From assembly GCA_045128835.1 (NCBI GenBank), contig JBGVRX010000002.1, forward strand, positions 44,145 to 108,144: a DNA stretch of 64,000 bases, written 5' to 3'. Shown here piece by piece: positions 9,261 to 58,376 of this stretch. Position 1 is the stretch's first letter; every line of letters starts with the position of its first letter. The notes beneath the pieces were generated by a model. It did not search any database. It was not told the origin of the DNA and saw nothing but the letters and a program-made list of their open reading frames with translations. The position numbers were made by a program, and so were the translations under genes. Source of the DNA: Bacilli bacterium (GTDB lineage: Bacteria; Bacillota_I; Bacilli_A; RFN20; DUOF01).

Positions 9261-9292
9261 GCTTAAATGAATAATATAAAGTATAATAATAC

Positions 9293-9321: not shown

Positions 9322-9332
9322 ATTGGCGTTGA

Positions 9333-9360: not shown

Positions 9361-9375
9361 AAATGGGGGGTTAAG

Positions 9376-9843: not shown

Positions 9844-9863
9844 TAGGAGGAAATTAAGTAAAA

Positions 9864-11417: not shown

Positions 11418-11423
11418 TTAGTA

Positions 11424-11681
11424 GTGAAAAAAGTTCCATTAAGAAAATGTGTTGCCACTAATGAAAGACTTCCTAAAGGAGAACTTGTTAGAATTGTAAA
11501 AAATAACGAAGGTAAAGTTTTCGTTGATTTAACAGGTAAAGCTAATGGAAGAGGGGCATACTTAAAAAAGAGTAATGAGGCAATTGATGTTGCTATCAAG
11601 AAAAATAGTTTAGGTAGAGCCTTGGAATGCACAATTGACCAAGAAGTTTATGATGAACTTAGGAAATTAGTTAGTGAATAA
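11424..11681 (+). CDS. ylxR: YlxR family (DUF448) RNA-binding protein
   Basis: PLRKC.....P...L.R motif; GTG start; canonical position after nusA. Confidence 0.8.
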   Translation: MKKVPLRKCVATNERLPKGELVRIVKNNEGKVFVDLTGKANGRGAYLKKSNEAIDVAIKKNSLGRALECTIDQEVYDELRKLVSE

Positions 11682-12000
11682 AGCGTTAAGTACCTTAGGT
11701 ATTTGTGCTTGTGCAAGAAAAATAAGTTATGGCGAGACACTTTTAAAAGACATCAAAGGTAAAAAAGTGCATTTGGTTGTAGTAGCAAGTGATTCAAGTG
11801 ATAACTCAAAAAAGAAGATTATTGATAAGTGCAACTTTTATGGTTGTGAATATGTAGTTTGTTTTGATAAAGAGAGCATTACTAAGTCAATTGGAAGAGT
11901 TGACTTAGTAAGTTCTGTTGGAATTAAAGATTATAATTTAGTTAAAAAATTTAAAGAAAATATAGAAAGGGAAGGTGGTTCTAATGAAGAAAAACAATAA
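11674..12000 (+). CDS. ylxQ: L7Ae/YlxQ family ribosomal-protein-like RNA-binding protein
   Basis: GK..LVVVASD motif; located between ylxR and infB. Confidence 0.75.
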
Positions 12001-13810
12001 ATCAAATTATGATAAAAGAACTTCTAATTTTGATAAGAAACATACTGAAAAAAATGAAGGTGAAAAGGTTGTTGTTTTCAAAGGAAGTAAAAGTGTTCAA
12101 GACCTTGCTAAAGAGTTAGGTGTTAGCGCTACTGAAGTTATTAAGTTTTTATTCATGGAAGGTAAGATGGTTACCATCAACTCTGATTTAGACATTTCTT
12201 TAGCCGAATTAGTTTGTTTAAATTACGGATATGACATAAAAATAGAAAAAGAAGTTAGTGAAGAAAATTTTGAAGAATTAGAAATCGTAGATGATGAAAA
12301 AGATTTAAAAGAAAGACCTCCTGTTGTTACAATTATGGGACACGTTGACCATGGTAAAACAACTCTTTTAGATGCAATTAGAAAAACTAGAGTTGTTGAA
12401 GGAGAAGTTGGTGGTATTACTCAAAGTATAGGTGCTTACCAAGTAGAAATAAATGGTAAAAAGATTACTTTCTTAGATACTCCAGGACACGAAGCTTTTG
12501 CTGCTATGAGAGCAAGAGGTGCGCAAATTACAGATATCGTTATTATCGTAGTTGCTGCTGATGATGGTGTTATGCCTCAAACTAAAGAAGCTATAGATCA
12601 CGCTAAAGCAGCTGGTGTTCCTATTATTGTTGCAGTTAACAAAATGGATAAACCAGGAATTAATGTAGAAAGATTATATAGTGAATTAAGTGAAATTGAT
12701 ATTATTAGTGAAGAATGGGGCGGAGAGAATATCTTCTGTAAAGTAAGTGCTAAAACAGGTCAAGGAATCGAAGAATTACTTGAGTCTATCTTAGTTCTTT
12801 CTGAACTTCAAGAATATAAAGCAAATCCATCTCGTTATGCTTACGGTACAGTAATTGAATCTAAACTTGAAAAAGGTAGAGGTACTGTTGCAACTTTATT
12901 AGTTCAAAATGGTACTTTAAGACATGGTGATAGTATTGTTGCTGGTACTGTATTTGGTAGAATTAGACAAATGAGAAATGATAAAGGTAAAGTTATCAAA
13001 GAAGCAGGTCCTTCAATGCCAGTAGAAATTACAGGTTTAAATGAAGTTCCAGGTGCTGGAGATAAATTTATGGCTTTCCAAGATGAGAAAAAAGCTCGTG
13101 AAGTAGCAGATAAGAGACTTACAGAAAAGACTTTATTAGATCGTCGTGGAAACACAAGTGTATCTTTAGAAGATTTGTATAACCAAATTAAAGTTGGTGA
13201 TGTTCAAACTATTAATATCATTATTAAAGCTGATAGTGATGGTTCAAGTGAAGCTGTTAAACAATCACTATTAAAATTAAGTAATGATGAAGTTAAGATT
13301 AATGTTATAAGAGCACAATCTGGTGCAATTACGGAATCTGATGTTTTATTAGCTAGTGCATCAAAAGCAATTATTTATGGATTCAACGTTAGACCTGACG
13401 CTTCAGTAAGAGCAAAAGCTGAAGAAGAAAGTGTTGATATAAGATTACATAGAATCATTTATGCTTTGGTTGAAGAAATTGAGGCTGCTATGAAAGGTAT
13501 GTTAAAACCAACATACAAAGAAGTAGTTACAGGTCTTGCTGAAGTTAGACAACTTTATAAAGTATCTAAAGTTGGTACAATCGCAGGAAGTTATGTAACG
13601 AGTGGTGTAATCAAAAGAGATTGTGGTGTTAGACTATTAAGAAATGGTGTAGTAGTTTATGAAGGTAAACTTGCTTCACTTAAGAGATTCCAAAATGATG
13701 CTAAAGAAGTATCAACAGGTTATGAATGCGGAATTATGATTGAAAACTTTAATGATTTAAAAGAAGGAGATCATATTGAAGGATTTGTAATGGAAGAAGT
13801 AAAAAGATAA
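11984..13810 (+). CDS. infB: translation initiation factor IF-2
   Basis: GTP-binding motifs [14 protein letters not shown] and NKMD. The ATG at 11984 has RBS ggaaggtgg; the track start 11975 is GTG. Confidence 0.9.
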
Positions 13811-13835
13811 AAAATAGTATTAGGTGGGATTATAA

Positions 13836-14174
13836 ATGGCAAAATTAAAACAAGAAAAACTTGCTGTTCAAATCCAAAAATATATTAGCGATATTATTCA
13901 ATTTGAATTAAAAGCTGATAATTTAGGAATTGTTACAGTTACTAGAGTAAAAGTTAGTGATGATAATTCATGGGCTAAAATATTCGTTAGTTTCTTAGAT
14001 AAAAATAGAGAAGAAAAGTTAGAAAAACTAAAAGAGTATAAAACTCCAATTAGAACAGCTTTAGCTAAGAAATTAACTATTAGAAGAACTCCTGATTTAG
14101 CTTTCGCATTAGATGATAGTTATGAAAAAGGAGAAAAAATCGAGAAAATCATTAGAGAGTTACATAATAAATAA
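13836..14174 (+). CDS. rbfA: ribosome-binding factor A
   Basis: Size, position after infB, and the conserved RTP.L.F..D motif. Confidence 0.85.
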   Translation: MAKLKQEKLAVQIQKYISDIIQFELKADNLGIVTVTRVKVSDDNSWAKIFVSFLDKNREEKLEKLKEYKTPIRTALAKKLTIRRTPDLAFALDDSYEKGEKIEKIIRELHNK

Positions 14175-14189
14175 CTCTCTTTTTTTATA

Positions 14190-14214
14190 CAAAAAAAGCA
14201 CTAATTAAAGTGCT
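14190..14214. terminator. Hairpin terminator shared by convergent rbfA and the PP-loop gene
   Basis: agcact-aattaa-agtgct stem with an A7 run upstream, which is the T-run for the minus-strand gene. Confidence 0.45.
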
Positions 14215-14969
14215 TCATCTTCTTCTTTCTTTTTCTCTTTTTCCCATAAATCTAATTTATCTAGATTATGTAACATTAATAGGAAGTTGTCTTCCGCCAT
14301 TGGGTATTTTTTATATAAATCCCTTAGCATTGTTTTCATATTTTCTCTTTCTGTATGTTTATCGTTAGGGCAAGTTGAAGTAACGATAGGGACATTTAAT
14401 TTGTTTGCAGATTTTACAATTAATTTTTCTCTAGCATATACAAAAGGTCTAATGAATGTTATTTCGCTTCTATCTAAGTACATTTTAGGTTTAAATGTAG
14501 CAATTCTACCTCCAAATATCATGTTCATTGCTAAAGTTTCGATAGCATCTTCGCTATGGTGAGCAAAAGCAACTTTATTACAATTAAACTTTTTAGCACC
14601 TTCAATAACAACAGCTTTCTTTATTTTAGAGCAAATTGAACAAGGAAGTCTACCATTGTTTTGGACATTTGCTTGTAGTATTTCATAAGCATGAGAAGGA
14701 ACTATTTCAAAACGGATGTTTTGTTCTTTGTACCATTCTACCATAGGACTAGGATCCATGTTAGGAAATCCCATTTCAATATGAATTCCAACGATGTCGA
14801 ACTTCTTTTTACTTTCGCACATTCTTTTATAAGCATTCATTGCATATAAAAGCAAAACAGAGTCTTTTCCTCCGCTTACACCTACGGCAATTGTGTCTCC
14901 TTCTTCAATTAGATTGTAATCTTCATCTGCTTTTTTTATACAGCCTAAAATATCTCTTAAATAGTACAT
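14205..14969 (-). CDS. PP-loop ATPase, tRNA 2-thiocytidine/tRNA-cytidine(32) sulfurtransferase TtcA family
   Basis: SGGKDS PP-loop motif and paired CxxC cysteine clusters (CSIC, STCP). Confidence 0.7.
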   Translation of the reverse strand: MYYLRDILGCIKKADEDYNLIEEGDTIAVGVSGGKDSVLLLYAMNAYKRMCESKKKFDIVGIHIEMGFPNMDPSPMVEWYKEQNIRFEIVPSHAYEILQANVQNNGRLPCSICSKIKKAVVIEGAKKFNCNKVAFAHHSEDAIETLAMNMIFGGRIATFKPKMYLDRSEITFIRPFVYAREKLIVKSANKLNVPIVTSTCPNDKHTERENMKTMLRDLYKKYPMAEDNFLLMLHNLDKLDLWEKEKKKEEDEAL

Positions 14970-15025
14970 AACATCATCCTTTTAAATAACAATGCAATAA
15001 TATACTATTATTGGAGATTTTTCAA

Positions 15026-15883
15026 TTATTTCTTTGATATCTTATTTAATAATTTTTCTGCGCCAGATAAATTTCCTTTTTTGGACTTTGTTTCTTTTCT
15101 TTTGTCTATTTGTTTTAGGATTGATTTTTCTAATTCATCTGGATCAATGCCTAAATAATTTCCCTTTGAAACAGCAGTTTGTGTTTTATATTTTAAAAGA
15201 GTTAAAGCAACATTTAAATCATGCATTATAACCTCTTCCTCAATATCTTTTCTTACATCTGCATCCATAAGACTAATATAGTATGTGTAATATAAATAGT
15301 TAGACAATTCATCTACGGCTGCTAGACTTGTTACTACATCAGAAGCAAATTCATTAGCGCTTACTTCAGCAGGAGAAAGCGTATATATTTCTTTCTTTGT
15401 TAAATCATCTTCGGGTAATATTCCTTTTTCCTCACAAATTGCAGAAAATAATTTTTCGTATAAACTTATAAAATAAAGATAAGCTTTATCTTTTTGATTA
15501 GGTGTTAATTCTTCTTCTTGAACTAAATCATTTACTAATTCATATTGATAATAATGGTAGCATTCGTGGGCAATAGTTGTGACTAAAAAGTATGGTAGAA
15601 ACACTTCTAAATTTAAATCACTTCTAAATTTGTTTTCGGCAAATGAGTAATCTACAAAGAAACTGTTTAAGCAAATAAAAGCAGGAACTCCTTTCATGAA
15701 GACTCCTCCGACAGTTTTTTCTTCGCTTAGGGTGTCAAATGTAACAATAACAGGTTCTAAATTTAATTTTCTGAAGAAATATTTAGCCAATTGATTTATT
15801 GCTTCAATCCTTTCTTCACGGCTAAGTGCATTATAATTTTTAGGGGCAAACTTTTCTAATAATTCCATGATTACCAACTCCAT
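15026..15883 (-). CDS. hypothetical protein with an HExxH (HECYH) metallopeptidase-like motif
   Basis: 285-aa ORF; IAHECYHYYQ motif. Confidence 0.4.
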   Translation of the reverse strand: MELVIMELLEKFAPKNYNALSREERIEAINQLAKYFFRKLNLEPVIVTFDTLSEEKTVGGVFMKGVPAFICLNSFFVDYSFAENKFRSDLNLEVFLPYFLVTTIAHECYHYYQYELVNDLVQEEELTPNQKDKAYLYFISLYEKLFSAICEEKGILPEDDLTKKEIYTLSPAEVSANEFASDVVTSLAAVDELSNYLYYTYYISLMDADVRKDIEEEVIMHDLNVALTLLKYKTQTAVSKGNYLGIDPDELEKSILKQIDKRKETKSKKGNLSGAEKLLNKISKK

Positions 15884-16041
15884 GACTATATTATATTATT
15901 GAGTTTGCTCTATTTCAATTATAATTTTTATTAAGTGGGTTAGGGCATTAAGATTTTCTTTGCTATTTTTAATATTATAATATTAAATAAATTGAATAAA
16001 AGCGATAAGTGTTGTAAAATTAGATGGTGAGGTGAAAGAGA

Positions 16042-18174
16042 GTGGCAAAGAAAGTATTTGAAAAAGAATTTGCAGGTAAAAAAATTATAGTTGAAACAGG
16101 AGAAATGGCTAAACAAGCTGATGGTTCTGTTTTAGTTAGATATGATGATACAGTTATTTTATCAACAGCTGTAGCAAGTAGTGAGAAGAAGGATACAGAT
16201 TTCTTCCCTTTAACTGTTACATTTGAAGAAAAATTATATTCAGTTGGTAAAATTCCTGGTAGTTTTTTAAGAAGAGAAGGAAAACCAAGTGAACACGCTA
16301 CATTAACAGCAAGATTAATTGATAGACCTATTAGACCTTTATTTGCTGAAGGTTTCAGAAATGAAGTTCAAGTAGTTAATACAGTTCTTTCAGTTAATAA
16401 GGATGCAACTCCTGAAATGGCTGCTATGTGGGGTGCAAGTTTAGCATTATGTGTAAGTGATATCCCATTTAATGGTCCTATCGCTGGTGTTTATGTAGGT
16501 AGAGTTGATGGTAAATATATCGTTAACCCATCAGTTGAAGAAATGGATAAGAGTGACATCGAATTAGCTGTTGCTGGTACTAAAGATGCAATCAACATGG
16601 TTGAAGCAGGTAGTAAAGAAGTAAGCGAAGAAGATATGCTTGGCGCTATCATGTTCGGTCATGAAAAGATTAAAGAATTAATCGCTTTCCAAGAAGAAAT
16701 CGTTAAAGAAGTAGGAAAAGCAAAAAGAGAAATCGAATTATATGAAGTAAGCGAAGAGATCAGAAATGATGTTGAAGCTAGAGCAAAAGATAGATTATTA
16801 GAAGCTATCAAAATTCAAGGTAAACTTGAAAGATATGCAGCTATTGATGCAATCAATGATGAAGTTGTTGCTTTATATGAAGAAAAAGAATACAAAGATG
16901 ACAAAGAAAAGAAAAATATCTTAATGCAAGTTAAAGATGTATTACATGATATTGAAAAAGCAGAAGTAAGAAGATTAATTACTGAAGATAAAGTTAGACC
17001 TGATGGTAGAGCTATTACAGAAATTCGTCCTCTTAACTCTCAAGTAGATTTATTACCAAGAGTACATGGTAGTGCAATGTTTACTAGAGGTGAAACTCAA
17101 GTATTATCAGTATGTACATTAGGCGCTCAAGGTGATGAACAAATTCTTGATAACGTAACTGATGAAGAAACAAAGAGATTCATGCATCACTATAACTTCC
17201 CACCTTATTCAGTAGGTGAAGTTGGAAGAATGGGTAGTCCTGGTAGAAGAGAAATCGGACACGGTGCATTAGGGGAAAGAGCATTACGTCAAGTAATTCC
17301 TAGTGAAGAAGTATTCCCATATACAATAAGAGTTGTAAGTGAAGTTTTAGAATCTAACGGAAGTAGTTCACAAGCTTCAATTTGTGCTTCAACAATGGCA
17401 TTAATGGCATCAGGTGTTCCAATTAAAGCTCCAGTTGCAGGTATTGCAATGGGATTAATTACTAATGGACCTATCGATTCAGGTGCTCCTTATACAATCC
17501 TAACTGATATTCAAGGTATGGAAGATCACTTAGGTGATATGGACTTCAAAGTTGCTGGTACTGAAAAAGGTATTACAGCATTACAAATGGATATCAAAAT
17601 TACAGGTATCAACGAAGAAATTTTAAGAAAAGCATTAGCACAAGCTAAAGTTGGTAGAAAAGAAATCATGGCTAACATGATGAGTGCTATTAGCGAAGTT
17701 AGACCTGAATTAAGCAAATATGCTCCAAAAGTTGGAATGATGCAAATTAACCCAGATAAGATTAGAGATGTAATCGGTTCTGGAGGAAAAACAATCAATG
17801 ATATTATTGCTAGATGCGATAACGTTAAGATTGATATTAGTGATGAAGGTAAAGTTGTTGTTTACCACCTTGATAGAGAACCAATTAATAAGGCTCTAGC
17901 AATCATCACTCGTTTAACTAAAGAAGCAAGAGTTGGAGAAATCTATGATGCTAAAGTAGTAAGACTTGAAAACTTTGGTGCATTCGTTGAATTATTCGAA
18001 GGATGCGATGCATTAGTTCACGTTTCAAAAATATCACACGAAAGAGTAGCATCTCCAAAAGATGTATTAAAAATCGGTGATGTTGTTAAAGTAGTAGTTA
18101 CTGAAATCGATGAAAAAGGAAGAGTAAATGCTTCAATAAAAGATTTACTTGCTAAACCTGAAGAAAGTAAATAG
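16042..18174 (+). CDS. pnp: polyribonucleotide nucleotidyltransferase (PNPase)
   Basis: Two RNase PH domains, a KH domain (GSGGKTI) and an S1 domain. GTG start with RBS ggtgaggtga. Confidence 0.95.
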
Positions 18175-18185
18175 TTATAAAAATA

Positions 18186-18222
18186 AAAAGGTTTCTAAGA
18201 TTTAATTAGAAACCTTTTTTTT
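18186..18222. terminator. Bidirectional rho-independent terminator after pnp
   Basis: aggtttctaa / ttagaaacct 10-bp stem followed by a T8 run, with an A-run upstream. Confidence 0.7.
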
Positions 18223-18913
18223 ATGGTTTTTTAGGTGTGCTTTTTAATTGCTCCACTTCTTTAAGTTCATCGTCTATTCCTAGTCTTTGAGAAATGTAAG
18301 CAATTGATTTTTCGGCAATGAATATGTGACGCACATCTTTCATTTGTTCTTCTTTTGAAATGTTACTAAATCTATTACCTAATTCAGTTCCTTTAGCGTA
18401 TGCATTTGCAGGTCTATTTTTCCATAGTAAGTGAATAGCAGAACCTATAACATTTACTAAAACTTCTCTTTGAGCAGGATCTGCTAGATATACATAGTTA
18501 TCTAGTGTTAATTCTACCGCCACTTCTGCAGCTTCTTTGTTTTCTTTTTGCCAATGAGGTGATAATTGAGAATATTTCATTTTAGCAATATCAATACTTA
18601 TTGAGTTATCTTCATTTTTTCTAACGTAAGGTAATGTCAAGAAACGTGGATCCCTTAAAATCATATCTACATATCTCTTTTCTTCTGGAGATTCAGTTGG
18701 GTCTAGTTTCTTCCATTTTTCCACTTGTTTAGGATTGCCTTTTTCGTCTAAAACAACATTTCCTTTATCATCTTTTATATAAGTTGTTTTTTTCCAAATT
18801 TCATGTAATTCACTCGCGGTTAAAGTGACAAGTTCTTCTACTGGCAGCTTGTTTAGTGTCTTTTGAATGCGCTCATTAAGCCTAAAGATATCTATTTTAG
18901 CCATTTTAGTCAC
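18221..18913 (-). CDS. hypothetical protein
   Basis: 230-aa ORF with no recognisable motif. Confidence 0.4.
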   Translation of the reverse strand: MTKMAKIDIFRLNERIQKTLNKLPVEELVTLTASELHEIWKKTTYIKDDKGNVVLDEKGNPKQVEKWKKLDPTESPEEKRYVDMILRDPRFLTLPYVRKNEDNSISIDIAKMKYSQLSPHWQKENKEAAEVAVELTLDNYVYLADPAQREVLVNVIGSAIHLLWKNRPANAYAKGTELGNRFSNISKEEQMKDVRHIFIAEKSIAYISQRLGIDDELKEVEQLKSTPKKP

Positions 18914-19073
18914 TTCCCCTTATATATTTTAGTTTATCATTTTCTCTAACTTATTACAAATTGAATATATTAAATGTGCAAAAAAAAGAAATATCAGTTT
19001 ACTTATAAATTTATTGTTTTATAATTGTACTGTAAATATATTAATTAATATATTTAGATGGAAGGAGAATAAT

Positions 19074-19769
19074 ATGATTATTTTAAGAAATGTAAATAAG
19101 ATATACGGCAAAGGTGAAGGTGCGGTTCATGCTTTAAAGGATGTAAATTTAGTAATTGAAGAAGGAAAATTTACTGCGATCCTTGGTAAATCAGGAAGCG
19201 GTAAATCAACATTAATGAATGTTATTGGGGCATTAGATAGTCCTACTAGTGGAACTATTGAGTCTAAGGGATTAATTTTAAATAAAATGAATAAGAATGA
19301 CTTGGCTAAATATAGAAATGAAACAACAGGTTTTGTTTTCCAATCATTCTATCTTGAGCCAACATTTACAGTATTAGAGAATGTTGCTATGCCTTTAACT
19401 ATTGCTGGAGTAAATAAGAAAACTAGAGAAGAAAAGGCATTAAAAATTATTAATGAATTAGGTCTTGGAGAAAAAGTTAATAAGAAAGCATCAGAATTGT
19501 CAGGCGGACAAAAACAAAGAGTTAGTATTGCTAGAGCTTTAGTAAGTGACCCGGATATTGTTTTAGCAGATGAACCAACTGGTAACTTAGACAGCCAAAA
19601 TGGTGCTGAAGTTATGAATTTATTAAAAGAAATCGTAAGAAAAGGTAAATCAGTAATTCTAGTAACACATAACATGGAAGATGCTAAAAATGCTGATAAT
19701 ATAATTGAAATTAAGGATGGAATTGCAACAGCAAGTTATATGAGTAAATATAAGGAGTTATTTAATTAA
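19074..19769 (+). CDS. ABC transporter ATP-binding protein (MacB/LolD/FtsE-like)
   Basis: Walker A GKSGSGKST, ABC signature LSGGQKQR and Walker B ILADEPT. RBS ggaaggag precedes the ATG at 19074. Confidence 0.85.
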   Translation: MIILRNVNKIYGKGEGAVHALKDVNLVIEEGKFTAILGKSGSGKSTLMNVIGALDSPTSGTIESKGLILNKMNKNDLAKYRNETTGFVFQSFYLEPTFTVLENVAMPLTIAGVNKKTREEKALKIINELGLGEKVNKKASELSGGQKQRVSIARALVSDPDIVLADEPTGNLDSQNGAEVMNLLKEIVRKGKSVILVTHNMEDAKNADNIIEIKDGIATASYMSKYKELFN

Positions 19770-49138: not shown

Positions 49139-49277
49139 ATAATACCTCTTTTAATCTTTACATATTTTTGATTTTAAAGACATTATTATTAAAAGTCAAT
49201 TAATGAAGGTGTTAAAAACTAAATAAATACTATATATCATTAAAGAGTAATGATATAATTAAATTAAGGTGATTAAA

Positions 49278-50492
49278 ATGATTAAGTATGAAACACTCAA
49301 AAAAATTAGTGATGAAATAGATGATTTAGAGTCTAGTATTTATGATTTAGAACGCGAAAAAAGATACTTAGAAAATGATAAAAGAGAGGCTGAAGGCGTA
49401 TCTAACATAGGTATGGCTACAATGGCTGTTAATATGACTGTTGGACTTTCTTCAAAAATGGTAGCAGATAATAAGGTAAGAGAACTTGAAAGTAAAATTG
49501 ATAAAATAAAAGATAAAATATATGAAACTGAAAAACTTTTATCAAAAAGAAAAACAGAATATCGTGATGCTTTAAAGGAATGGGAAGAAGAAAGAAAAGA
49601 GGCGGAACTTGTAATAGATGGTGATAATATCTATATAAAAGGTGATAAAGATAAAAAAGATGTTTTAGAGTCTGTGAAGAGTGTTCGTGAAAATAGAAAA
49701 AATAGATATAATGAGATTAAAAAAAATAAAGATGTTATGGACTATGTAGATGCTAGAATAGAACTTATTCAAGAATTTGAAGATAGAGGGTTCTGTCATA
49801 AAACAGATACTTTTAAATCTGATTTTTATAAAGATTTTTTGAGAATTGCAAATTATGTTAGTTTCTCTTGTCAAGATGAAATAGAGGGCTATTATGTTCC
49901 AAAATCAGGTTTTGATAAAGAACTAATTACTGTTTTGAAAAATAGAATTGCTATTTGCGAAGATAACATTGCAAATCAAAAGAAAACATATGAAAGATTA
50001 ACTCCTGGATTTTTTGGAAATTTGTTTAAGGCTGCATATAACAAAAAGTATATGAAGGTTAAATCTTTAGCGGAACACGAAATCTCTTGTCAAAAACTAA
50101 AAATTGCGGAATATGAAAGAGAAATAAAGGCTGTTTTAGACTTTAAAGAGAAATATCCTCAAGTTTATGATGAAAAACTTAATAAATTAATTAAGGACTA
50201 TGAAAATAAGAGAAATACATTAGATGAAAAAGGTGAGTTACATCTTGCTAGAGAGATTGTAGAAATTGTAAAAGGATTAAAGGAAAATCGTTGTATAGTT
50301 CATAAAGGTGTTTTCTTGCCTTATGAAGTAAAACAATATTTACTTGAGAATAATTTGTCGTTATCAAAAGAAAATCTTGTTGCATGTATGGATAAAATGG
50401 ATCAATTAGATAATGAGATAAAGAAGGATGTAAAAAATATTTTGGAAGATGAAGGTGGATATACACCTTTAAATCAGGTAAAGAAAAGATAG
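49278..50492 (+). CDS. hypothetical coiled-coil protein
   Basis: Lys/Glu-rich heptad-like sequence. RBS aaggtga precedes the ATG at 49278. Confidence 0.45.
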   Translation: MIKYETLKKISDEIDDLESSIYDLEREKRYLENDKREAEGVSNIGMATMAVNMTVGLSSKMVADNKVRELESKIDKIKDKIYETEKLLSKRKTEYRDALKEWEEERKEAELVIDGDNIYIKGDKDKKDVLESVKSVRENRKNRYNEIKKNKDVMDYVDARIELIQEFEDRGFCHKTDTFKSDFYKDFLRIANYVSFSCQDEIEGYYVPKSGFDKELITVLKNRIAICEDNIANQKKTYERLTPGFFGNLFKAAYNKKYMKVKSLAEHEISCQKLKIAEYEREIKAVLDFKEKYPQVYDEKLNKLIKDYENKRNTLDEKGELHLAREIVEIVKGLKENRCIVHKGVFLPYEVKQYLLENNLSLSKENLVACMDKMDQLDNEIKKDVKNILEDEGGYTPLNQVKKR

Positions 50493-50504: not shown

Positions 50505-50533
50505 TTGCAAAAAAAATAAAGATATGATATAAT
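50505..50533 (+). promoter_or_regulatory. Near-consensus sigma-A promoter (-35 TTGCAA, 17 nt, -10 TATAAT) driving the large ncRNA locus
   Basis: ttgcaa-N17-tataat. No ORF lies downstream for >600 nt. Confidence 0.55.
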
Positions 50534-50539
50534 ACCAAA

Positions 50540-51125
50540 CTGTGGAGGTGCAGTATTCTAGTCAGTTTTGCTGCTATGAAGACGTATTAAGACGTTTGAG
50601 GGCACATCTATGAAGTTCTTGGTGCTTGCTTTGGTTGCCCAAACTGGGGTGGGTGCTGAGAGTTAAGATTTTTGGGCGCACTATAACGGCATATAGTATA
50701 CGACCCAACTATCGCGGAGACGCAGATGGGTGTAGATTCGTTTACACTCCCTGCGAAGAACCTGCATTGCAGTAACATGTGTGCAGTGTAGCCTGGTTTG
50801 AGTGAATAACGAGGGATTACATGTATGACAAATATAAATACTTGGCCAGTTTTATATTCTGATTTTGTATGAAATCTTATTTGCAAAACATCCTAGTAGC
50901 ATGTCAAAGCTGTCAAGGAAAACTTCTAGACTGTTAAATTTATTTAGATGTTTTAAGGATTATAGTGTGTACTAAGTGGCGATTCGGTGTGTAAACTTGC
51001 TTAATAGGAAACTGCTCTACTGGTAACGGTAAGCGTGAGTTTGAGAAATTCGACCGAACCTAAGACATAAGGTTTACTTAATTCATTACCTTCACATAAC
51101 GCAGTGCATTCGTGCTGCGTTTTAC
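50540..51125 (+). ncRNA. Large (~585 nt) structured noncoding RNA candidate; OLE-like (ornate large extremophilic) RNA or related large ornate RNA
   Basis: 650 nt without any credible ORF in an otherwise gene-dense region. GC content is visibly elevated (~43-45%) relative to the flanking ~28%. Many local helices (ctgcattgcag, gtgtagattcgtttacac, cgcag...ctgcg). Own strong promoter. 3' hairpin aacgcag-N10-ctgcgtt. A DxxxD 4-TM protein gene lies immediately downstream, like oapA. Confidence 0.5.
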
Positions 51126-51189: not shown

Positions 51190-51807
51190 ATGGAAAAAGA
51201 TGGATCGAAAAAGAAAAAGAATAAAAATGTGTTTACGGAATATTTTAGGTGGCCATTAATAGTTTTGGCAGTTTCTTTATTTTTATCATTTTCTTTTAGT
51301 TTTCTTAGTGAATTAGCATTGAGTAATGCTAGTTTAGTAGTAGCTATTTTAGTTATTGTGTTCTTTATGTTTGTATCAATAATAACTGACGCTATTGGTG
51401 TTGCAGTTACTGCAGCAGTGGAAGTGCCTTTTAGAGCAATGGCTGCTAAAAAAGTAAAAGGTGCGAAAGAAAGTATTATTTTAATTAATAATGCAGATAA
51501 GGTTGCAAGTATTATTGCAGATATCTTAGGTGATATTTGTGGTATCTTATCAGGAGCCGCAGGTGCAGTTGTTACAGCTAAACTTATTGAAGGAGTAACA
51601 GACTCAATGCAACTTGTAGTAATAGCATCTATGGTTAGTGCAGTTATCGCAGGTGTAATTATCTTTGGTAAAGCCATGGGTAAAAAAGTAGCTTTGGATA
51701 ATTGCGATAAAATAGTGCTTATGATAGGTAAAATAGTTTATATATTTACTTTTGGTAAATTATCACTAAAGAATAAAAATCCAAACAAACAACAAGGGTC
51801 TAATTAA
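51190..51807 (+). CDS. small 4-TM membrane protein with DxxxD motifs in TM helices, OapA-like (OLE-associated protein A)
   Basis: 205 aa; 4 predicted TM helices. TM2 has ITDAIGV. TM3 has ADILGDICG, a DxxxD motif. Located directly 3' of the large ncRNA. Confidence 0.5.
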   Translation: MEKDGSKKKKNKNVFTEYFRWPLIVLAVSLFLSFSFSFLSELALSNASLVVAILVIVFFMFVSIITDAIGVAVTAAVEVPFRAMAAKKVKGAKESIILINNADKVASIIADILGDICGILSGAAGAVVTAKLIEGVTDSMQLVVIASMVSAVIAGVIIFGKAMGKKVALDNCDKIVLMIGKIVYIFTFGKLSLKNKNPNKQQGSN

Positions 51808-51885: not shown

Positions 51886-52443
51886 ATGTATTATAGAATA
51901 AGTTGTGATGCTGAAAATTACAGAAATTATATTTTAAAAAAAGAAGAAGTTAAAGAAGGCGACGAACTTTATCGTGACAAGTTTGATGGCAGTTCTCAAA
52001 AAGATAATTATGAAACACAAACTTTTGTAATGACAAGAAAAAGAGAAGTAAGTTTTCCAGTAGCAGATATATTTTTTAGTGATCTTCCTATTTGTAGTGA
52101 AAGAGCAAAAGAAGTTATAGAAAGTATTTGTAATGAGGGAGAGATAGAATTTTTACCATGTGAAGTAGAAGCAACAGAAGGTAATTATTATATTTTAAAT
52201 GTACTGGGTGCAGAAGATTGCGTTGATTATGATAATTCGGATTTTGTTAGATTTTCTAGTGGTAGAATAATGTTTTTTAATCATATAAAGTTTAATAAGA
52301 AAATAGAAAGGCACTTTTTTAGAATTACAGATTTAATTAATGGTTTTTATTTTATAAGTGAAGAAACTAAAGAAATTTTAGAAAAAGCTGATTTGAAAGG
52401 TTTAGTTTTTGATAATAGTTTATTTATAGAAAAGAGTAACTAG
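51886..52443 (+). CDS. hypothetical protein (possible immunity/accessory protein)
   Basis: 185-aa soluble ORF between the ncRNA/oapA locus and the RiPP cluster. Confidence 0.4.
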   Translation: MYYRISCDAENYRNYILKKEEVKEGDELYRDKFDGSSQKDNYETQTFVMTRKREVSFPVADIFFSDLPICSERAKEVIESICNEGEIEFLPCEVEATEGNYYILNVLGAEDCVDYDNSDFVRFSSGRIMFFNHIKFNKKIERHFFRITDLINGFYFISEETKEILEKADLKGLVFDNSLFIEKSN

Positions 52444-52522
52444 TGTTTTAGAGGCACAAACCTTAGATATATCTTGAATAAAGGGCACTTTTGTGGTAGC
52501 ATTAGTGCATAGAGGTGATAAC

Positions 52523-52609
52523 ATGGATATTAAAATTGAAGATGTTTTAGACTTAGAAGTTGCATTAGTAGACAACTGTGGCTGCGCTAATGGCGGAGAC
52601 AAGTGTTAA
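52523..52609 (+). CDS. RiPP precursor peptide, 28 aa: MDIKIEDVLDLEVALVDNCGCANGGDKC (acidic leader plus Cys/Gly-rich core)
   Basis: ATG at 52523 is preceded by RBS gaggtga (52513-52519). Stop TAA at 52607. Not in the ORF track (too short). Directly upstream of two rSAM/SPASM genes. Confidence 0.6.
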   Translation: MDIKIEDVLDLEVALVDNCGCANGGDKC

Positions 52610-52634
52610 TTTAAAAAAAATTTAATAAGAAAAG

Positions 52635-52667
52635 GCATAACAGTTTTATTAAATTGTTATGCTTTTT
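52635..52667 (+). terminator. Intrinsic terminator/attenuator immediately after the precursor gene
   Basis: gcataacagttt-tatt-aaattgttatgc 12-bp stem (1 GU) followed by a T5 run. It lies between the precursor stop and the next gene's RBS. Confidence 0.6.
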
Positions 52668-52688
52668 AGTTATTCAAAGGAGAAGTAT

Positions 52689-53111
52689 ATGAAAAAAATA
52701 TGCAATTTAAGCCAAAGTAAAATAGAATTAAAAGGCTTTTTAGAAGATAAATTAGAAAATATGGGATCTAGTGATTTTAATGTGTTAGTAATAGATGATC
52801 AAAAGGAAAATAAAGGATTAGTAATTAAATATCAAGATAAACTAGATTGTGTTATATTAAATGATTACAAAGGGAATCTTAATGACATCTTTTTTGTTCC
52901 TGTTGTTATAACTAGTGAAGTTAATAATGCTCCTCAATATTTTTACTGTAAAGATAATATTGAAGAAGTTCTTTTGGATATTGAAAAGTTTAGTAATGCT
53001 ATACCTAATATGAGAAGAATTTCAGCGGAAGAAATTTCATGTAAGATGGTTGATTTAACATCTAAGAAAAAGAAAGGCAATTCTAATAAATTAAAGATAT
53101 TGGTAGGGTAA
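52689..53111 (+). CDS. hypothetical 141-aa protein in the RiPP operon
   Basis: RBS aaggaga lies 5 nt upstream of the ATG at 52689. The track start 52659 lies inside the terminator hairpin. Confidence 0.45.
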   Translation: MKKICNLSQSKIELKGFLEDKLENMGSSDFNVLVIDDQKENKGLVIKYQDKLDCVILNDYKGNLNDIFFVPVVITSEVNNAPQYFYCKDNIEEVLLDIEKFSNAIPNMRRISAEEISCKMVDLTSKKKKGNSNKLKILVG

Positions 53112-53115
53112 GAGT

Positions 53116-54315
53116 ATGTATAGAGGCTATTTAATTGATTATAGAAAAGAAAACGATGATTTATATATCTTAAAAAATAAAAAGAGCGGGGTTTATTATT
53201 ACTCTAACTATGTTGCTACTAGAGTTTATGAATTATTAGATAAAAGAGTTAGTGTTAAAGAAATAGTAGAAACTTTAGCTAAAGAATATAATGCTCCTAT
53301 TTATTTTATGGAGAAGATGGTTTTAATGGCTATTTCTCAAATTCAAAGTAAAGAAGATGCTGTACATTGGAAACAAGAGTCTAAATTCCCTTTAAGAGTA
53401 TCTTGGAGATTAACAGATCGATGTAACTTAAAGTGCTTACATTGTTACGCTACTTGTGAAAGTGAAGCAAAACAAAAAGAATTACCTTTAGAAACAATAA
53501 AATCAATCGTAGATAAATTAGAAGAAGCAAATATTTTTGAAATCTCTTTAACAGGAGGAGAAATATTTGTTAGACATGATTTAAAAGAAATAATTGAGTA
53601 TATTAATTCTAAGAATATTACTTTAGCTTTATTTACTAACGCCACATTAGTTTTAAGTAACTATGAGTGGTTAAAAGAATGTCATATTAGAAGATTTAAT
53701 ATAAGTTTAGATGGATTAGAAGAAGAACACGATTTATTAAGAGGAAAAGGTAATTTTAAAAGAACAGTAGATGCGATAAAACTTTTACAAAAAGATGGGG
53801 CAAGAATAGTAATAAATTGCGTTATTAACTCTTTAAATGTTCATAGGCTAGTAGAAATATTGCATTTCTTTGTAGATAATAAATTAGAATTCCAATTTTC
53901 ATTGATGACTCCAATTGGAAGAGGGGCAGATAACATTGATATCGTTCCTAAAAAAGAAGTTTATATGGAAGCAGTTAAGAAGTTACAAGAAGAATATGAA
54001 AAACTTAAAATAGCGGGATTTATTCATAATGCTTATACTGGAGAGGATTTGCAAATTGATGAAGATGGAGAAACTACTGTTAGTGAAGATAAATGGGTAT
54101 GTAATGCTGGTACTACTAAGTTTGATATAGATGTTAATGGTGATGTCTATTGTTGTCCATTTAGTAAGAGTAGTTTTGTAGGTAATATTGTAGATAAAAC
54201 AGTAAAAGAGTTATGGGAAAATGAGAGTAGATTTAATTTTATTAATTTCACTAAGACATATAATGGAAGATTCTGTAAACCAATAGGAGATACAATGAAT
54301 GAACAAAATAAGTAA
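53116..54315 (+). CDS. radical SAM/SPASM-domain peptide-modifying enzyme with an N-terminal RRE/PqqD-like extension
   Basis: CNLKCLHCY (CxxxCxxC). SPASM region CNAGTTKFDIDVNGDVYCCP...C. The ~95-aa N-terminal region contains a VSVKEIVETLAKEY..P wHTH-like segment. Confidence 0.85.
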   Translation: MYRGYLIDYRKENDDLYILKNKKSGVYYYSNYVATRVYELLDKRVSVKEIVETLAKEYNAPIYFMEKMVLMAISQIQSKEDAVHWKQESKFPLRVSWRLTDRCNLKCLHCYATCESEAKQKELPLETIKSIVDKLEEANIFEISLTGGEIFVRHDLKEIIEYINSKNITLALFTNATLVLSNYEWLKECHIRRFNISLDGLEEEHDLLRGKGNFKRTVDAIKLLQKDGARIVINCVINSLNVHRLVEILHFFVDNKLEFQFSLMTPIGRGADNIDIVPKKEVYMEAVKKLQEEYEKLKIAGFIHNAYTGEDLQIDEDGETTVSEDKWVCNAGTTKFDIDVNGDVYCCPFSKSSFVGNIVDKTVKELWENESRFNFINFTKTYNGRFCKPIGDTMNEQNK

Positions 54316-55636
54316 TCAAGTATTAAAACTGTCACAAAATTTAAAATTTTTAGAAGTTAATGAAAAAGTATCTATTTGTTACAATAAAAATGCTTTTAAA
54401 CCAGTATTATTACCTAATTCAGTTAGAGAAAACTATTTAAATGGTCTTAGAGAAATAAATAATCCGGATGAAAATATTGTAAAGATGTTTACTAATAATT
54501 ATATTGGCTTTTTTGATAAGGAATTAACTAAAGAAGAAATATATAGTAAGTTAAAACAAGATTATGATAAGAAAGAATCTACTTTAAATGTTAGATTTAT
54601 TCCAAGTTATAATTGCGATAAGAATTGCTCTTATTGTTTAATTCAAAATATAAGAGGTCAGATGAAAGAGTCTTTTGATCTTAGTTATTTAGATAATTTA
54701 AAAAATCTTGTAGATATTTATAAGAAGAGTACTCCTAATTTAAATAAAGTTAGCGCTACTATTATTGGAGGAGAACCTACTTTAGATAAGAACTGGGATA
54801 TTACTAAAAAGTTCATCAATGAGCTAAATAAGTATTTTGATAAAAAAGAACATGTTCTAGTTACAAATGGGTATGGAGTTAATGAATCATTATTAAAAGA
54901 GTTTAAGGATATGGGCGGTAAATCTGTTTACTTATCATATGATTTAAGAGGTAATGTTATAGATGATAGTGAGCCGGAATCTAAGTCTAATTTTGAAAAA
55001 TTTAAGAGTTTGTGCCTTTTAGTAGTTAATAATGGTGTTTCTTTGACAGTAGATTTTAAATGTAATAAAGATACTAAAATAAATGAAACCGTTAAGTCTT
55101 TCTTGGATAATCTTATCTCTTTAGATTCTTCAATAAATATTGTCGCATCTAAAATAGTATCTCAAAAAGAATATGATGTTTTAGAAAGCCCTCAATGTCA
55201 AAGGTATGAACTTGTAGATTTAAAAGAGGAAGATATATTGCCTGTATATTATGAGTTTATAAATTTATATCCTTATAATTTTTCTTATCCTAGACAATTT
55301 GAAATAATGATTTATAGATGCTCTACTGTATCAATGAAATCATTTGTAGTATTCCCAAATGGAAAAGTATCTTTATGCGGTAAGTTATATTCCTCAAATC
55401 CCGATAATATACCTTATATTTATGATTTTAAAACAAGTGAATTTAACTTTGAGTTAACTGAATCGTTTTGTAAGACAGTGTTAGATGATGAAGAATGTAA
55501 AGAGTGCGAGTATTCACTTATTTGTGGAGGCAAGTGTCCTTTTAAAAAAGGAAAATGTGATAAAGAAAAAATAAATGTAGAGTTATTACTAGAAATTTAT
55601 AAAAGCAATATAAAAAGACAATTAAATAAAAAGTAA
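54299..55636 (+). CDS. second radical SAM/SPASM-domain enzyme, translationally coupled to the first
   Basis: YNCDKNCSYC radical-SAM motif. C-terminal SPASM cysteines CKECEYSLICGGKCPFKKGKC. Overlaps the upstream gene by 17 nt. Confidence 0.85.
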   Translation: MNKISNQVLKLSQNLKFLEVNEKVSICYNKNAFKPVLLPNSVRENYLNGLREINNPDENIVKMFTNNYIGFFDKELTKEEIYSKLKQDYDKKESTLNVRFIPSYNCDKNCSYCLIQNIRGQMKESFDLSYLDNLKNLVDIYKKSTPNLNKVSATIIGGEPTLDKNWDITKKFINELNKYFDKKEHVLVTNGYGVNESLLKEFKDMGGKSVYLSYDLRGNVIDDSEPESKSNFEKFKSLCLLVVNNGVSLTVDFKCNKDTKINETVKSFLDNLISLDSSINIVASKIVSQKEYDVLESPQCQRYELVDLKEEDILPVYYEFINLYPYNFSYPRQFEIMIYRCSTVSMKSFVVFPNGKVSLCGKLYSSNPDNIPYIYDFKTSEFNFELTESFCKTVLDDEECKECEYSLICGGKCPFKKGKCDKEKINVELLLEIYKSNIKRQLNKK

Positions 55637-55660
55637 GATGCAAATTTAGCATCTTTTTTA
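55635..55660 (+). terminator. rho-independent terminator closing the RiPP operon
   Basis: aagatgc-aaattta-gcatctt hairpin followed by a T6 run. Confidence 0.7.
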
Positions 55661-55790
55661 TTGCTGGAAAAAACTTTGTTTTCATGAAAAGTATGCTTGT
55701 GGCATAAAAGATAAGACTGAATGCTCTAGAATGAAAATTTCTTCTTTCATTTTATATATTTCTATAATATAATTGAAGTAGGTGATTTAG

Positions 55791-56267
55791 ATGAATATTA
55801 AGTTTTATAAAAGTTGTTATGATTTAGCGGCATTTGCTACTTGTCTTAAAGATGGTAAGCCTACTCTTACTATAGGAGATAGAGTACAAGAAAGAATTGA
55901 ATTTACGGATAATTTCTTTGTTGTTGCTCAATATAAGTTTTTAGGTTCAGATTATTTGTCTTCATTTGATTATGAAGTTCATAGTTTTTCTATTAACTTT
56001 ATAAGAGATGATGAGTTAGTAGAATCTATTAATTTTGAAAAGAAGTTTGATTGTAAGAAAGTTGGTTCTTTAGCAGATCCTAGAGTTAATAAGGAAGCGA
56101 AAATGGAAGTTATTAAAGAATGTAGACCTACTAAAGCTGAGCAATTTGAAAATATGTTTAAGAAAACAAAACTACAAAGTCATGAAGTAGCAATGGTAAT
56201 TGCAAAGAATAAAAAGTTGTTCGATGAATTAGTTGCTAAACAAGAAATAAAAAATGTAAAAAAATAA
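55791..56267 (+). CDS. hypothetical protein
   Basis: 158-aa ORF. Confidence 0.4.
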   Translation: MNIKFYKSCYDLAAFATCLKDGKPTLTIGDRVQERIEFTDNFFVVAQYKFLGSDYLSSFDYEVHSFSINFIRDDELVESINFEKKFDCKKVGSLADPRVNKEAKMEVIKECRPTKAEQFENMFKKTKLQSHEVAMVIAKNKKLFDELVAKQEIKNVKK

Positions 56268-56984: not shown

Positions 56985-57225
56985 TTTTTATTACCTCTCT
57001 TTGCTTAGGTCCTATCAATATAACACATATTTCTAAAAATTGGAAGTATTAGTTTTTGGGCCTATATTTCGTTGTTGAAAGGTTGTTTTATCAATGATAT
57101 AATCTTTTCGGTGATTAAAGTGATTCTATATAGAGTTATGTCAAGTTATGAATTGAAGCAATTAATGGGTGTTAATGTTAATGAAAATGATAGAAATGTA
57201 TTGTATGGTAATAACACTTTTAAAT

Positions 57226-57711
57226 ATGAAAAAAAATACTGAGTATATGCATTTCTTTAGATATGCAGATCACGCGAAAGCAATGGTCTATAAGTTTGGA
57301 GAAATTATTGTAAGATGTGATATTCCGGATGAACTTGTAGATCAAGAAGGGTTTGGTTTTTATAGTAATGAAATCTCTGTTCTTCCTGAATGCATAATAA
57401 AAAAGGAAAATTTTGATGTTAATTTTATAAAAGGGTTTAAATATCAACTTACATGTGGTTGGAGTAATCCTCCTATTCCTATTGAAGAGCATAAGGGTAG
57501 ATATATTGGAGGATATGGCGAGTTATATGCTGAATTATTTAATGATTTGAAAAAACAATACTATAAAGAAGATCCTCCAGAGTTAATTAATTCTTATATA
57601 GTAGGGAAATTAAAAGGAAAAAACTTAGATGAAATCTTATTGAGGTATATAGATAAAGTTGATCAAAAACATAAACCTAATGGTTTTTCTAAATTATTTA
57701 TGAAAAGATAA
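57226..57711 (+). CDS. hypothetical protein
   Basis: ORF with an uncertain start; the upstream M-rich extension in the track is unlikely. Confidence 0.3.
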   Translation: MKKNTEYMHFFRYADHAKAMVYKFGEIIVRCDIPDELVDQEGFGFYSNEISVLPECIIKKENFDVNFIKGFKYQLTCGWSNPPIPIEEHKGRYIGGYGELYAELFNDLKKQYYKEDPPELINSYIVGKLKGKNLDEILLRYIDKVDQKHKPNGFSKLFMKR

Positions 57712-57785
57712 TAGGCATATATTGGTGCCTATTTTTTTGTGTTGAAAGGAGAAACTTGAGATGGTAAAATATTGCTAGTGAGGAA

Positions 57786-58376
57786 GTGAAATTTATGGCA
57801 TTTGAAATATATTCGGGACCAAATTATGATGTTATAGAAATAGAGGAAGTAAATAGGAAGTATCAAATTGCGGCATTTGCTAAAAATGATGATGGGAAAA
57901 TTGGTACATCTATGATAGATAGAGTAGATAATAAGATTAAGACAATAATATACACTGATGGTAAGGTTATTAAGGTTGAAAAGAGTGAACCAATTCCTAT
58001 AAGCGAATATTTTATTGATAAGAAAAAATATAATTATGAAGTTAATCAATTAGTAAAGAAGAGATTATATATTGAAGATGCTACTTATATTGTTAAAGTT
58101 AATTTAGCAGAAGAAATATTAGATTTCGAAAGTAGAGGAAGAAAAGGAAGAGGTAACTTCTACGTTATAACTTCTAGTGAACTTTTAGTTAAAGACAAGA
58201 AGGATAAAGAAGCTATAAGGAAAGCAAAAGAAACAGTAAAAAGTATAAAAGCAAATTCTAGAGAGTTTAATTCTGTTTGGGATGTTTTGTTTAAGAAAAA
58301 AGCAAATAATGAATCTACTTTAGAATATGAAAGTACTCAAGAAGATATATATCAATTAAAGAGTAGAACTAGATAG
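57786..58376 (+). CDS. hypothetical protein
   Basis: 196-aa Lys-rich ORF. Confidence 0.4.
   Translation: MKFMAFEIYSGPNYDVIEIEEVNRKYQIAAFAKNDDGKIGTSMIDRVDNKIKTIIYTDGKVIKVEKSEPIPISEYFIDKKKYNYEVNQLVKKRLYIEDATYIVKVNLAEEILDFESRGRKGRGNFYVITSSELLVKDKKDKEAIRKAKETVKSIKANSREFNSVWDVLFKKKANNESTLEYESTQEDIYQLKSRTR

Follow-up and report, generated by a model that had tools for sequence, protein, structure and literature searches.

A compact cassette of a small cysteine peptide, a protein of no known family and two radical-SAM enzymes in a Bacilli bacterium

Closest described systems

Ribosomally synthesised peptides with post-translational modifications (RiPPs) that are matured by radical S-adenosylmethionine (SAM) enzymes are a well-known general kind, with a Cys-containing precursor and enzymes that bear a RiPP recognition element (RRE), a SPASM domain or a twitch domain. 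About 15,000 RiPP-associated radical-SAM proteins are counted in a 2023 compendium, and many families are uncharacterised (PMC10288494). Here we describe a candidate cassette of this kind from a Bacilli bacterium (GTDB lineage Bacteria; Bacillota_I; Bacilli_A; RFN20; DUOF01), located at 52450-55660 of a stretch of 64,000 nucleotides (the window; assembly GCA_045128835.1, contig JBGVRX010000002.1, positions 44,145 to 108,144 of the forward strand). The region is a genuine four-gene operon, which encodes a small Cys peptide (the precursor), a protein that we call X, and two radical-SAM enzymes, rSAM1 and rSAM2. The initial annotation of the window had seen here a compact RiPP operon of undescribed type, and this description is supported by the conserved precursor, by enzymes that lie outside the curated families, and by an RRE together with a CteB-like fold. 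Our comparisons rest on the 12 distinct loci that were retrieved, one of which has a named source while the others come from metagenome, metagenome-assembled genome (MAG) or sequencing-run assemblies; individual loci are given L numbers.

The closest solved sequences to rSAM1 are those of SkfB (6efn, E 1.5e-16) and MoaA. Both are twitch enzymes, and SkfB is a thioether synthase. The SkfA/SkfB system shares with the cassette a radical-SAM core joined to a truncated twitch-type domain and a small Cys peptide as the substrate. However, the alignment of rSAM1 with SkfB is limited to the core (residues 86-253), the score of rSAM1 against the SkfB model TIGR04403 is 75.7 bits with a cut-off of 300, and the precursors are unrelated; moreover, the cassette adds a SPASM enzyme and X and contains none of the skf export and immunity genes.

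The sequence families best matched by rSAM2 are TIGR04463 (rSAM_vs_C_rich, 58.2 bits) and TIGR04334 (Clo7bot, 48.8 bits), both of which align nearly end to end, but with cut-offs of 525 and 600 bits, respectively, rSAM2 is not a member of either. Members of these families are paired with Cys-rich short peptides in Firmicutes, and to our knowledge their chemistry is uncharacterised. At the level of structure, an AlphaFold model of rSAM2 (predicted local distance difference test score, pLDDT, 77.7) was compared with solved structures using Foldseek, and its best matches were CteB, the SCIFF maturase (5why; E 1e-12, TM 0.54-0.57, approximately 459 aligned columns, including the N-terminal domain), and TigE, followed by SuiB and anSME. 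The match to CteB runs over the full length, and both proteins have a SPASM domain with seven cysteines. Cys-Asp and Cys-Glu thioethers are the products of QhpD. PapB, the freyrasin enzyme, makes Cys/Asp thioethers (PMC9413430), and the invariant Cys and Asp of the cassette's precursor recall the Cys-Asp thioethers of PapB and of QhpD. Nevertheless, identity to the ranthipeptide synthases (CteB, PapB, NxxcB, QhpD/QhpC) is only 15-17%, rSAM2 has no match among PDB sequences at E<=0.1, and the SCIFF, QhpD and PapB family models are not among the NCBIfam matches of the cassette enzymes. The precursor differs as well, with a D-x-C at the C-terminus in which Asp lies upstream of Cys, in place of CX3D repeats or the 6-Cys core of SCIFF.

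Two further systems resemble the cassette in their organization. In thuricin CD, an adjacent pair of radical-SAM enzymes (TrnC/TrnD) is encoded in one operon with small Cys-bearing precursors (TrnA/B) (PMC12093266). In contrast, the cassette has a single D-x-C precursor plus X, its two enzymes are of unlike architecture (twitch versus SPASM) and do not form a pair of similar paralogues, and in the window it lacks a transporter. In the mycofactocin system (MftA/B/C, the MftE peptidase and the MftF glycosyltransferase of family GT2), a short precursor with invariant last residues is accompanied by an RRE-based radical-SAM enzyme and an extra small protein, all of which have counterparts in the cassette, and extended relatives of the cassette add GT2 and peptidase genes. 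However, the precursor in the window ends in Asp-Lys-Cys (Asp-x-Cys in the family) and not in Val-Tyr, rSAM1 scores 121 bits against the MftC model TIGR03962 (cut-off 265), X is not a PqqD/RRE protein, and homologues of MftD and MftE as well as linked dehydrogenases are absent.

We found no description of this family in the literature on the peptide motifs, family names and gene combinations, nor did we find a curated model dedicated to any one of the parts or a close relative of solved structure. The distinctive features of the cassette are the C-terminal D-x-C signature of the peptide, the combination of one twitch and one SPASM enzyme, and the obligatory motif of X.

The four components

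The initial annotation had described a precursor of 28 amino acids with an acidic leader and a core of three cysteines, the last of them C-terminal. All these features are present in the window, where the leader spans approximately residues 1-17 and the core is NCGCANGGDKC, but the third Cys is not needed across the family, in which the conserved pattern is C...D-x-C-COOH. A six-frame regular-expression scan detected a short open reading frame (ORF) that ends in D-x-C-stop beside the rSAM1-family gene in 12/12 distinct loci, and the precursor is retained in syntenic relatives down to 28-32% enzyme identity. This is the opposite of what had been named as counting against a RiPP pathway, namely a precursor that is not conserved beside the radical-SAM genes of relatives. 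In the precursor alignment, the invariant elements are the C-terminal Cys, the Asp two residues earlier and, at a distance that varies, one or more Cys farther upstream; in the numbering of the window these are Asp26 and Cys28, with Cys19 as the upstream Cys in the 10 loci with a long leader, while Cys21, the second Cys of the window's peptide, is not conserved in the family. The C-terminal sequences are ...VDNCGCANGGDKC in the window, ...VDNCSCANGGDKC in L017, ...LSLSCAGEAHNDSC in L002, ...LSLSCTGQAHNDAC in L007, ...VSTCSCIGSDKC in L005, ...VSTCTCNGSDKC in L011, ...VSTCGCAQCGGSDKC in L006, ...VSTCGCSQCGGSDRC in L015, ...GVSCSCSNGGDKC in L013, ...AELGGDYCTDVC in L016 and ...AELGGNYCSDSC in L008.

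Because none of the related loci lacks the peptide ORF and its codons show six synonymous differences and one non-synonymous difference between the window and L001, we judge it to be a real gene under purifying selection, beyond what chance would produce. Its product has no match in NCBIfam, Pfam or PADLOC. A longer precursor of 38 amino acids that begins at a GTG, the start chosen by gene callers, was rejected: the ATG of L001 is immediately preceded by a stop codon, so that only the 28-residue form is possible there. The core in the window consists of Cys, Gly, Ala, Asn, Asp and Lys only and, since it contains no aromatic residue, cyclophanes, Lys-Trp links and other cross-links that require an aromatic residue are impossible.

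The N-terminal part of rSAM1 (residues 18-62) matches the PqqD family PF05402 with 30.9 bits (cut-off 23.4) and thus provides an RRE, and is followed by a radical-SAM core (PF04055, 82.9 bits, cut-off 29.5) with the cluster motif C103-x3-C107-x2-C110 and by a match to the first half of the SPASM domain (31.2 bits). In a comparison of cysteines among 15 family members, the three of the cluster motif are invariant, and the auxiliary cysteines comprise C329-x12-G-x4-C347 and C387, the latter found in 14/15 members. The CX2CX5CX3C block is absent, as is the full two-cluster SPASM arrangement, and judged by its cysteines the C-terminal domain is a twitch-like, one-cluster domain with a three-Cys site. 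Such a three-Cys auxiliary site is expected to leave an open coordination site, as in MoaA and in Aux I of CteB. The initial annotation had assigned full SPASM cysteine arrays to both enzymes, which is correct for rSAM2 but not for rSAM1.

rSAM1 remains under every NCBIfam equivalog cut-off. Its best match is to TIGR04053 (129 bits, cut-off 395), and in addition to the MftC and SkfB scores given above it obtains 107 bits for StsB (NF045574, cut-off 625), 87.8 bits for AlbA (NF012164, cut-off 850) and 98-119 bits against the models of MoaA, AhbD and NirJ. Residues 95-244 also match the PADLOC profile pVip with 76.7 bits, over 152/257 profile positions that represent the generic core only; membership in pVip is disfavoured because of the PqqD domain, the twitch domain and the conserved peptide gene.

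The radical-SAM core of rSAM2 (PF04055, 37.4 bits against the same cut-off) has the invariant cluster motif C106-x3-C110-x2-C113. Its SPASM domain (TIGR04085, 31.7 bits, cut-off 27) contains C341-x13-G355-x4-C360, C400-x2-C403-x5-C409-x3-C413 and C420, all of them invariant, which gives the seven cysteines of a complete array. In the structural model, the N-terminal domain, a beta-sheet with helices that aligns with that of CteB, may be RRE-like. A profile of the rSAM2 family yielded only weak matches, to ChlB and MoaA, and the protein stays under every NCBIfam equivalog cut-off, with 35.5 bits for anSME (TIGR03942, cut-off 349) and 19.1 bits for PqqE (TIGR02109, cut-off 381). No sulfatase gene is present near the cassette in the window. 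Neither enzyme, in short, reaches the cut-off of any curated equivalog family, and placement among anaerobic sulfatase maturases or other non-RiPP clades, the second finding that had been named as fatal to the original proposal, is ruled out by the scores, all equivalog scores being far below their cut-offs. We read both enzymes as peptide maturases, rSAM1 because of its PqqD/RRE domain and its relation to SkfB, and rSAM2 because of its CteB fold, its SPASM domain with seven cysteines and the Cys-rich-peptide families that it resembles.

X was annotated as a protein of unknown family with 141 amino acids; the former holds, whereas the measured length is 140. A start at the ATG at 52659, which would give 150 amino acids, was rejected, as this codon lies inside the hairpin at 52630-52667 and has no ribosome-binding site. 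No match of X was found in Pfam, NCBIfam or PADLOC, and Pfam scans of 10 X proteins returned sub-threshold noise alone (KaiA_N; COXG at E 0.005-0.12). Its relatives comprise eight close matches, and when 1.84 billion representatives were searched exhaustively with HMMER, five matches were obtained at E<=1e-3, one of them spurious (P0140, a Q-rich repeat protein). An AlphaFold model built with nine close homologues has a pLDDT of 38 and is unusable.

The N-terminal part of X, about 100 residues, is poorly conserved and is entirely missing in L013 and L016, where X is reduced to a motif-bearing protein of 45 amino acids and of 35-40 amino acids, respectively. This motif, P-x-x-x-[RK]-I-x-x-E-E-[IVL]-S-C-[KR]-[MV]-[IV], with the 14-residue core [RK]I..EE.SC[KR]M[VI], was found in every locus but L008, whose 3.1-kb contig begins approximately 210 nt upstream of rSAM1. 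The possibility that X is a paralogue of the precursor was rejected at an hhalign probability of 1%. In the 10 long-leader loci X lies downstream of the hairpin that follows the peptide gene, that is, on the side of the enzymes. Because of this position, and because the X gene is separated from rSAM1 by 4 nt in the window and overlaps the next radical-SAM gene in L013 and L016, we read X as an enzyme-side component, for which the role of a small accessory subunit is more likely than that of a second substrate.

Proposed maturation and its alternatives

A short precursor ORF that is conserved beside modifying enzymes across relatives is what characterises a RiPP cluster, and we have little doubt that the cassette serves RiPP maturation. 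From its gene content, domain architecture and sequence invariants and from the conservation of its four parts, we infer the following route, including the order of its steps. The 28-residue peptide would be transcribed from its own promoter, and a leaky terminator hairpin downstream of its gene would probably keep the peptide messenger RNA in excess over that of the enzymes. The acidic leader would probably be bound by the PqqD-type domain of rSAM1, and the RRE-like domain of rSAM2 may do the same. Both radical-SAM enzymes would then modify the short C-terminal core, most likely by forming thioether cross-links from Cys sulfur to carbon of the sacti-/ranthipeptide type, one per enzyme. By analogy with PapB, QhpD and NxxcB, the Asp(-2)/C-terminal Cys pair with its fixed spacing is one probable cross-link site, and the three-Cys twitch cluster of rSAM1 would leave an open iron site for the substrate thiolate. 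X, whose gene is closely or translationally coupled to the downstream radical-SAM gene, would take part through its conserved motif as an accessory subunit. ABC exporters and peptidases in relatives point to a secreted peptide with a presumed biological activity.

Thioether chemistry is favoured because the Cys and Asp are invariant, because the closest enzymes of solved structure are SkfB (for rSAM1) and CteB (for rSAM2) and the closest families are maturases of Cys-rich peptides, and because rSAM1 has a three-Cys site; for the whole statement, this chemistry included, our confidence is moderate. Several points weigh against it. Both enzymes score far under the cut-off of every curated family, and the function of divergent radical-SAM enzymes is not reliably predictable, according to the compendium (PMC10288494). 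Protease, exporter and immunity genes are absent from the window's cassette. That the invariant Cys is always the last residue is also in keeping with an MftC-type reaction at the C-terminus, and the invariant Cys of X could equally make X a substrate.

The main rival is accordingly a mycofactocin- or pyrroloquinoline quinone (PQQ)-like process, in which one radical-SAM enzyme would oxidatively decarboxylate or rearrange the terminal Cys, perhaps with cyclisation onto Asp(-2), to yield a small fragment, a cofactor or a small molecule. The invariance of D-x-C-stop at the extreme C-terminus in all 12 loci has a parallel in MftA, whose terminal Val-Tyr is likewise invariant; MftC is among the top NCBIfam matches of rSAM1, the GT2 and TldD/PmbA proteins of the extended relatives parallel MftF and MftE, and the cassette in the window has no exporter. 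The MftC score, however, is not only below its cut-off but also no better than those of a dozen unrelated SPASM families, dependent oxidoreductase genes are not linked, and a rare, patchy, island-borne family is unlike a cofactor pathway. Moreover, such chemistry leaves the upstream Cys of 12/12 precursors unexplained and does not account for the ABC exporters of relatives. We consider it unlikely.

Another departure from the proposed route concerns X and the reaction itself. Because a 14-residue Cys motif suffices as a mini-protein of 35-45 amino acids in two loci, it may be speculated that the cassette is a three-component radical-SAM system without a described counterpart, in which the Cys motif of X acts in trans as a thiol partner, for example as the fourth ligand for the three-Cys cluster of rSAM1 or through a transient covalent link with the peptide, and in which the C-terminal Asp-x-Cys undergoes a new reaction, e.g., a radical decarboxylative cyclisation, and not ordinary thioether formation. 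We regard this combination as doubtful.

Less probable still is a two-substrate system, in which X would serve as another precursor and be modified at its motif Cys, with each radical-SAM enzyme serving one peptide or both acting together. The retention of motif and Cys when X shrinks to 35-45 amino acids in L013 and L016 would suit a substrate, as would the place of X as the first gene of the L016 cluster, and the count of two enzymes fits two Cys-bearing small products; thuricin CD, the two-peptide sactibiotic that provides the analogy, requires two radical-SAM enzymes (PMC12093266). Nevertheless, X has 140-212 amino acids and a variable N-terminal domain in 10/12 loci, is found, in the 10 long-leader loci, on the enzyme side of the candidate attenuator, is tightly coupled to a radical-SAM gene and shares no homology with the precursor, and its motif is conserved over the whole length in the manner of a binding surface, not at single modification sites.

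Finally, it is very improbable that the enzymes have nothing to do with peptide maturation, being instead anSME proteins, viperin-like defence proteins or cofactor enzymes of the MoaA/NirJ/AhbD type beside an incidental small ORF: the matches of rSAM1 to pVip, MoaA, AhbD and NirJ and of rSAM2 to anSME could be read in this way, but they lie far under cut-offs of 284-650 bits and involve the generic radical-SAM core only, the small ORF occurs in every locus with signs of purifying selection, rSAM1 bears a PqqD domain for peptide recognition, and no sulfatase, kinase, haem or molybdopterin genes are linked in the window.

Layout, neighbourhood and relatives

The cassette consists of a promoter-like site, the 28-residue ORF, X, the overlapping rSAM1 and rSAM2 genes and a terminator, with the genes at the positions claimed earlier (Table 1).

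Table 1. Features of the cassette (positions in the window)
Feature	Position	Strand	Details
Promoter-like site	52474..52502	+	TTGAAT (-35, 52474-52479), 17-nt spacer, TGn-TAGCAT (-10, 52497-52502); read from sequence
Shine-Dalgarno sequence of precursor gene, AGAGGTGA	52511..52518	+	Invariant in window, L001 and L017
Precursor peptide gene, 28 aa, MDIKIEDVLDLEVALVDNCGCANGGDKC	52523..52609	+	ATG 52523, TAA 52609
Terminator-like hairpin with T-run, candidate attenuator	52630..52667	+	Between precursor gene and X
Protein X, 140 aa	52689..53111	+	Preceded by AAAGGAG; no known family
Core motif of X, residues 106-123, PNMRRISAEEISCKMVDL	53004..53057	+	I111, E114 and C118 invariant; from alignments
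rSAM1, 399 aa	53116..54315	+	PqqD/RRE, radical-SAM core, twitch-like C-terminal domain
rSAM2, 445 aa	54299..55636	+	Putative RRE-like N-terminal domain, radical-SAM core, 7-Cys SPASM; 17-nt overlap with rSAM1
Terminator-like hairpin with T-run, operon end	55635..55661	+	Hairpin 55635-55655; 7 pairs, 3 G-C

The promoter proposed in the initial annotation is present as a promoter-like sequence, though it scores under the 9-of-12 threshold of a consensus scan. L001 and L017 share the TTGAAT hexamer without change and have -10-like hexamers (TAATAT, TAGTAT) in the same position, while the sequence farther upstream has diverged. The operon-end terminator, which had been called strong, is indeed a hairpin with a T-run, but its stability is only moderate (-9.5 kcal/mol, z -2.2). 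The strongest hairpin of the cassette is the one between the precursor gene and X, which the initial annotation did not mention (-19.2 kcal/mol, z -6.55; 0/200 shuffles fold as well). Its stem is invariant across L001 and L017, with variation confined to the loop, and stable but non-homologous hairpins occupy the equivalent position in L002, L007, L005, L011, L015 and L013; a hairpin thus follows the peptide gene in these six loci as well as in the window, L001 and L017, with sequences that are unrelated between the groups. A hairpin between a highly expressed structural gene and the genes for its enzymes is a usual arrangement, and the one in the window is probably an attenuator.

The family is tiny, with about a dozen loci among billions of predicted proteins. 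Relatives of rSAM1 number 13 full-length or nearly full-length proteins at 39-99% identity and one at 32%, beyond which only generic SPASM proteins were found; for rSAM2, 11 matches were detected in 5.8 billion proteins. Of the relatives that have a name, 'Bacilli bacterium fecal_MAG_421' is the closest. A search with rSAM2 against plasmid, phage and viral-contig sets gave no match, and in these sets there is no sign of a plasmid- or phage-borne cassette. The parts of the cassette stay together across the 12 distinct loci (for L008, the region of X lies outside the contig), while the flanking genes differ.

In the window, an OLE RNA, an OapA-like gene and an Imm11 gene lie upstream of the cassette and a VanY gene downstream. 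The OLE RNA is full-length (50529-51108, + strand, approximately 1.4 kb upstream; Rfam RF01071, 369 bits, E 8e-105), with 40% GC within a window of 29% GC, and is followed by a terminator-like hairpin at 51098-51121. The next gene (51190-51807, +) encodes a membrane protein of 205 amino acids that matches CNNM/DUF21 weakly (E 3.6e-4) and is probably OapA, a protein associated with OLE RNA. Immediately upstream of the cassette, an Imm11-family protein (PF07791, E 1.4e-11) is encoded at 51886-52443 (+). Other ORFs of the neighbourhood, of 407, 158, 180 and 196 amino acids (49269-50492, 55791-56267 and 57169-58376, all +), match nothing in Pfam at E<=0.01, the 407- and 158-residue products also match nothing in PADLOC, and none of the four is conserved beside the cassette in L001.

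In L001 and L017 the cassette is preceded by a GNAT-like gene and followed by SUFU-type genes (the latter at 6003-6584 in L001 and 5489-6070 in L017). The orphan immunity-type neighbours suggest a variable accessory island and not a link to the peptide pathway. The upstream gene of L001 (102-794) has a weak GNAT match, and Acetyltransf_3 genes are found convergent with and downstream of the cassette in L002 (8578-9138, - strand), L003 (4590-5150, -) and L007 (5339-5908, -). The window has no GNAT gene, and the GNAT proteins beside minimal cassettes span three clades; they could be tailoring or self-protection enzymes.

Some loci contain larger clusters. L005, L006, L011 and L015 (clusters at 3086-11018, 1-13245, 4050-19278 and 1-16862, respectively) add some or all of the following: two alpha/beta hydrolases, a carbamoyltransferase, a GT2 glycosyltransferase, TldD/PmbA, a carrier protein, an adenylating (AMP-binding) enzyme and two ABC transporters. 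The ABC transporters and TldD/PmbA occur in L006, L011 and L015. In the extended form, the genes for the two alpha/beta hydrolases and the carbamoyltransferase are located between rSAM1 and rSAM2, and L015 encodes a further radical-SAM protein of 503 amino acids. The extended cluster looks like a pathway that turns the shared C...DxC scaffold into a natural product of greater complexity. In L005, the precursor is closely preceded by genes for a LytTR response regulator and a 543-residue protein with no Pfam match (505-1224 and 1385-3016), and at the same position L011 encodes an uncharacterised protein of 506 amino acids (2447-3967), which hints at regulation of the quorum-sensing type in extended clusters.

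The additional genes of L013 encode an ABC-2 exporter and an M16 peptidase. Its cluster (1-4720) has 27.6% GC, versus 51.2% in the flank (5086-8053) that carries moaA, moaC, MOSC and moaB genes; this contrast in composition indicates that either the cluster was acquired recently by horizontal transfer or the metagenome contig is chimeric. L016 contains a hybrid cluster (1275-8658) with a third radical-SAM gene: the reduced X comes first, followed by an extra SPASM radical-SAM enzyme with an RRE-like C-terminal tail, the rSAM1 homologue, a precursor, MKTNIIIIDDEENLAELGGDYCTDVC, with a double-Gly leader and a tandem [DN]-x-C, rSAM2, a PPDK-like protein and a YcaO protein.

New enzyme chemistry, as well as narrow-spectrum antimicrobial or signalling peptides from anaerobes, comes in large part from radical-SAM enzymes that modify peptides. 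Against this background the cassette is a solid discovery lead and not a categorical surprise. It offers a compact four-gene target for expression, with the simple and well-delimited substrate signature C...D-x-C-COOH, two enzymes with contrasting auxiliary clusters and an obligatory partner motif that belongs to no known family. If the product is an ordinary thioether peptide, the cassette would represent one more uncharacterised sacti-/ranthipeptide family; if Asp-x-Cys proves to be a new cross-link site, or X a trans-acting Cys partner, it would be of real interest for RiPP enzymology.

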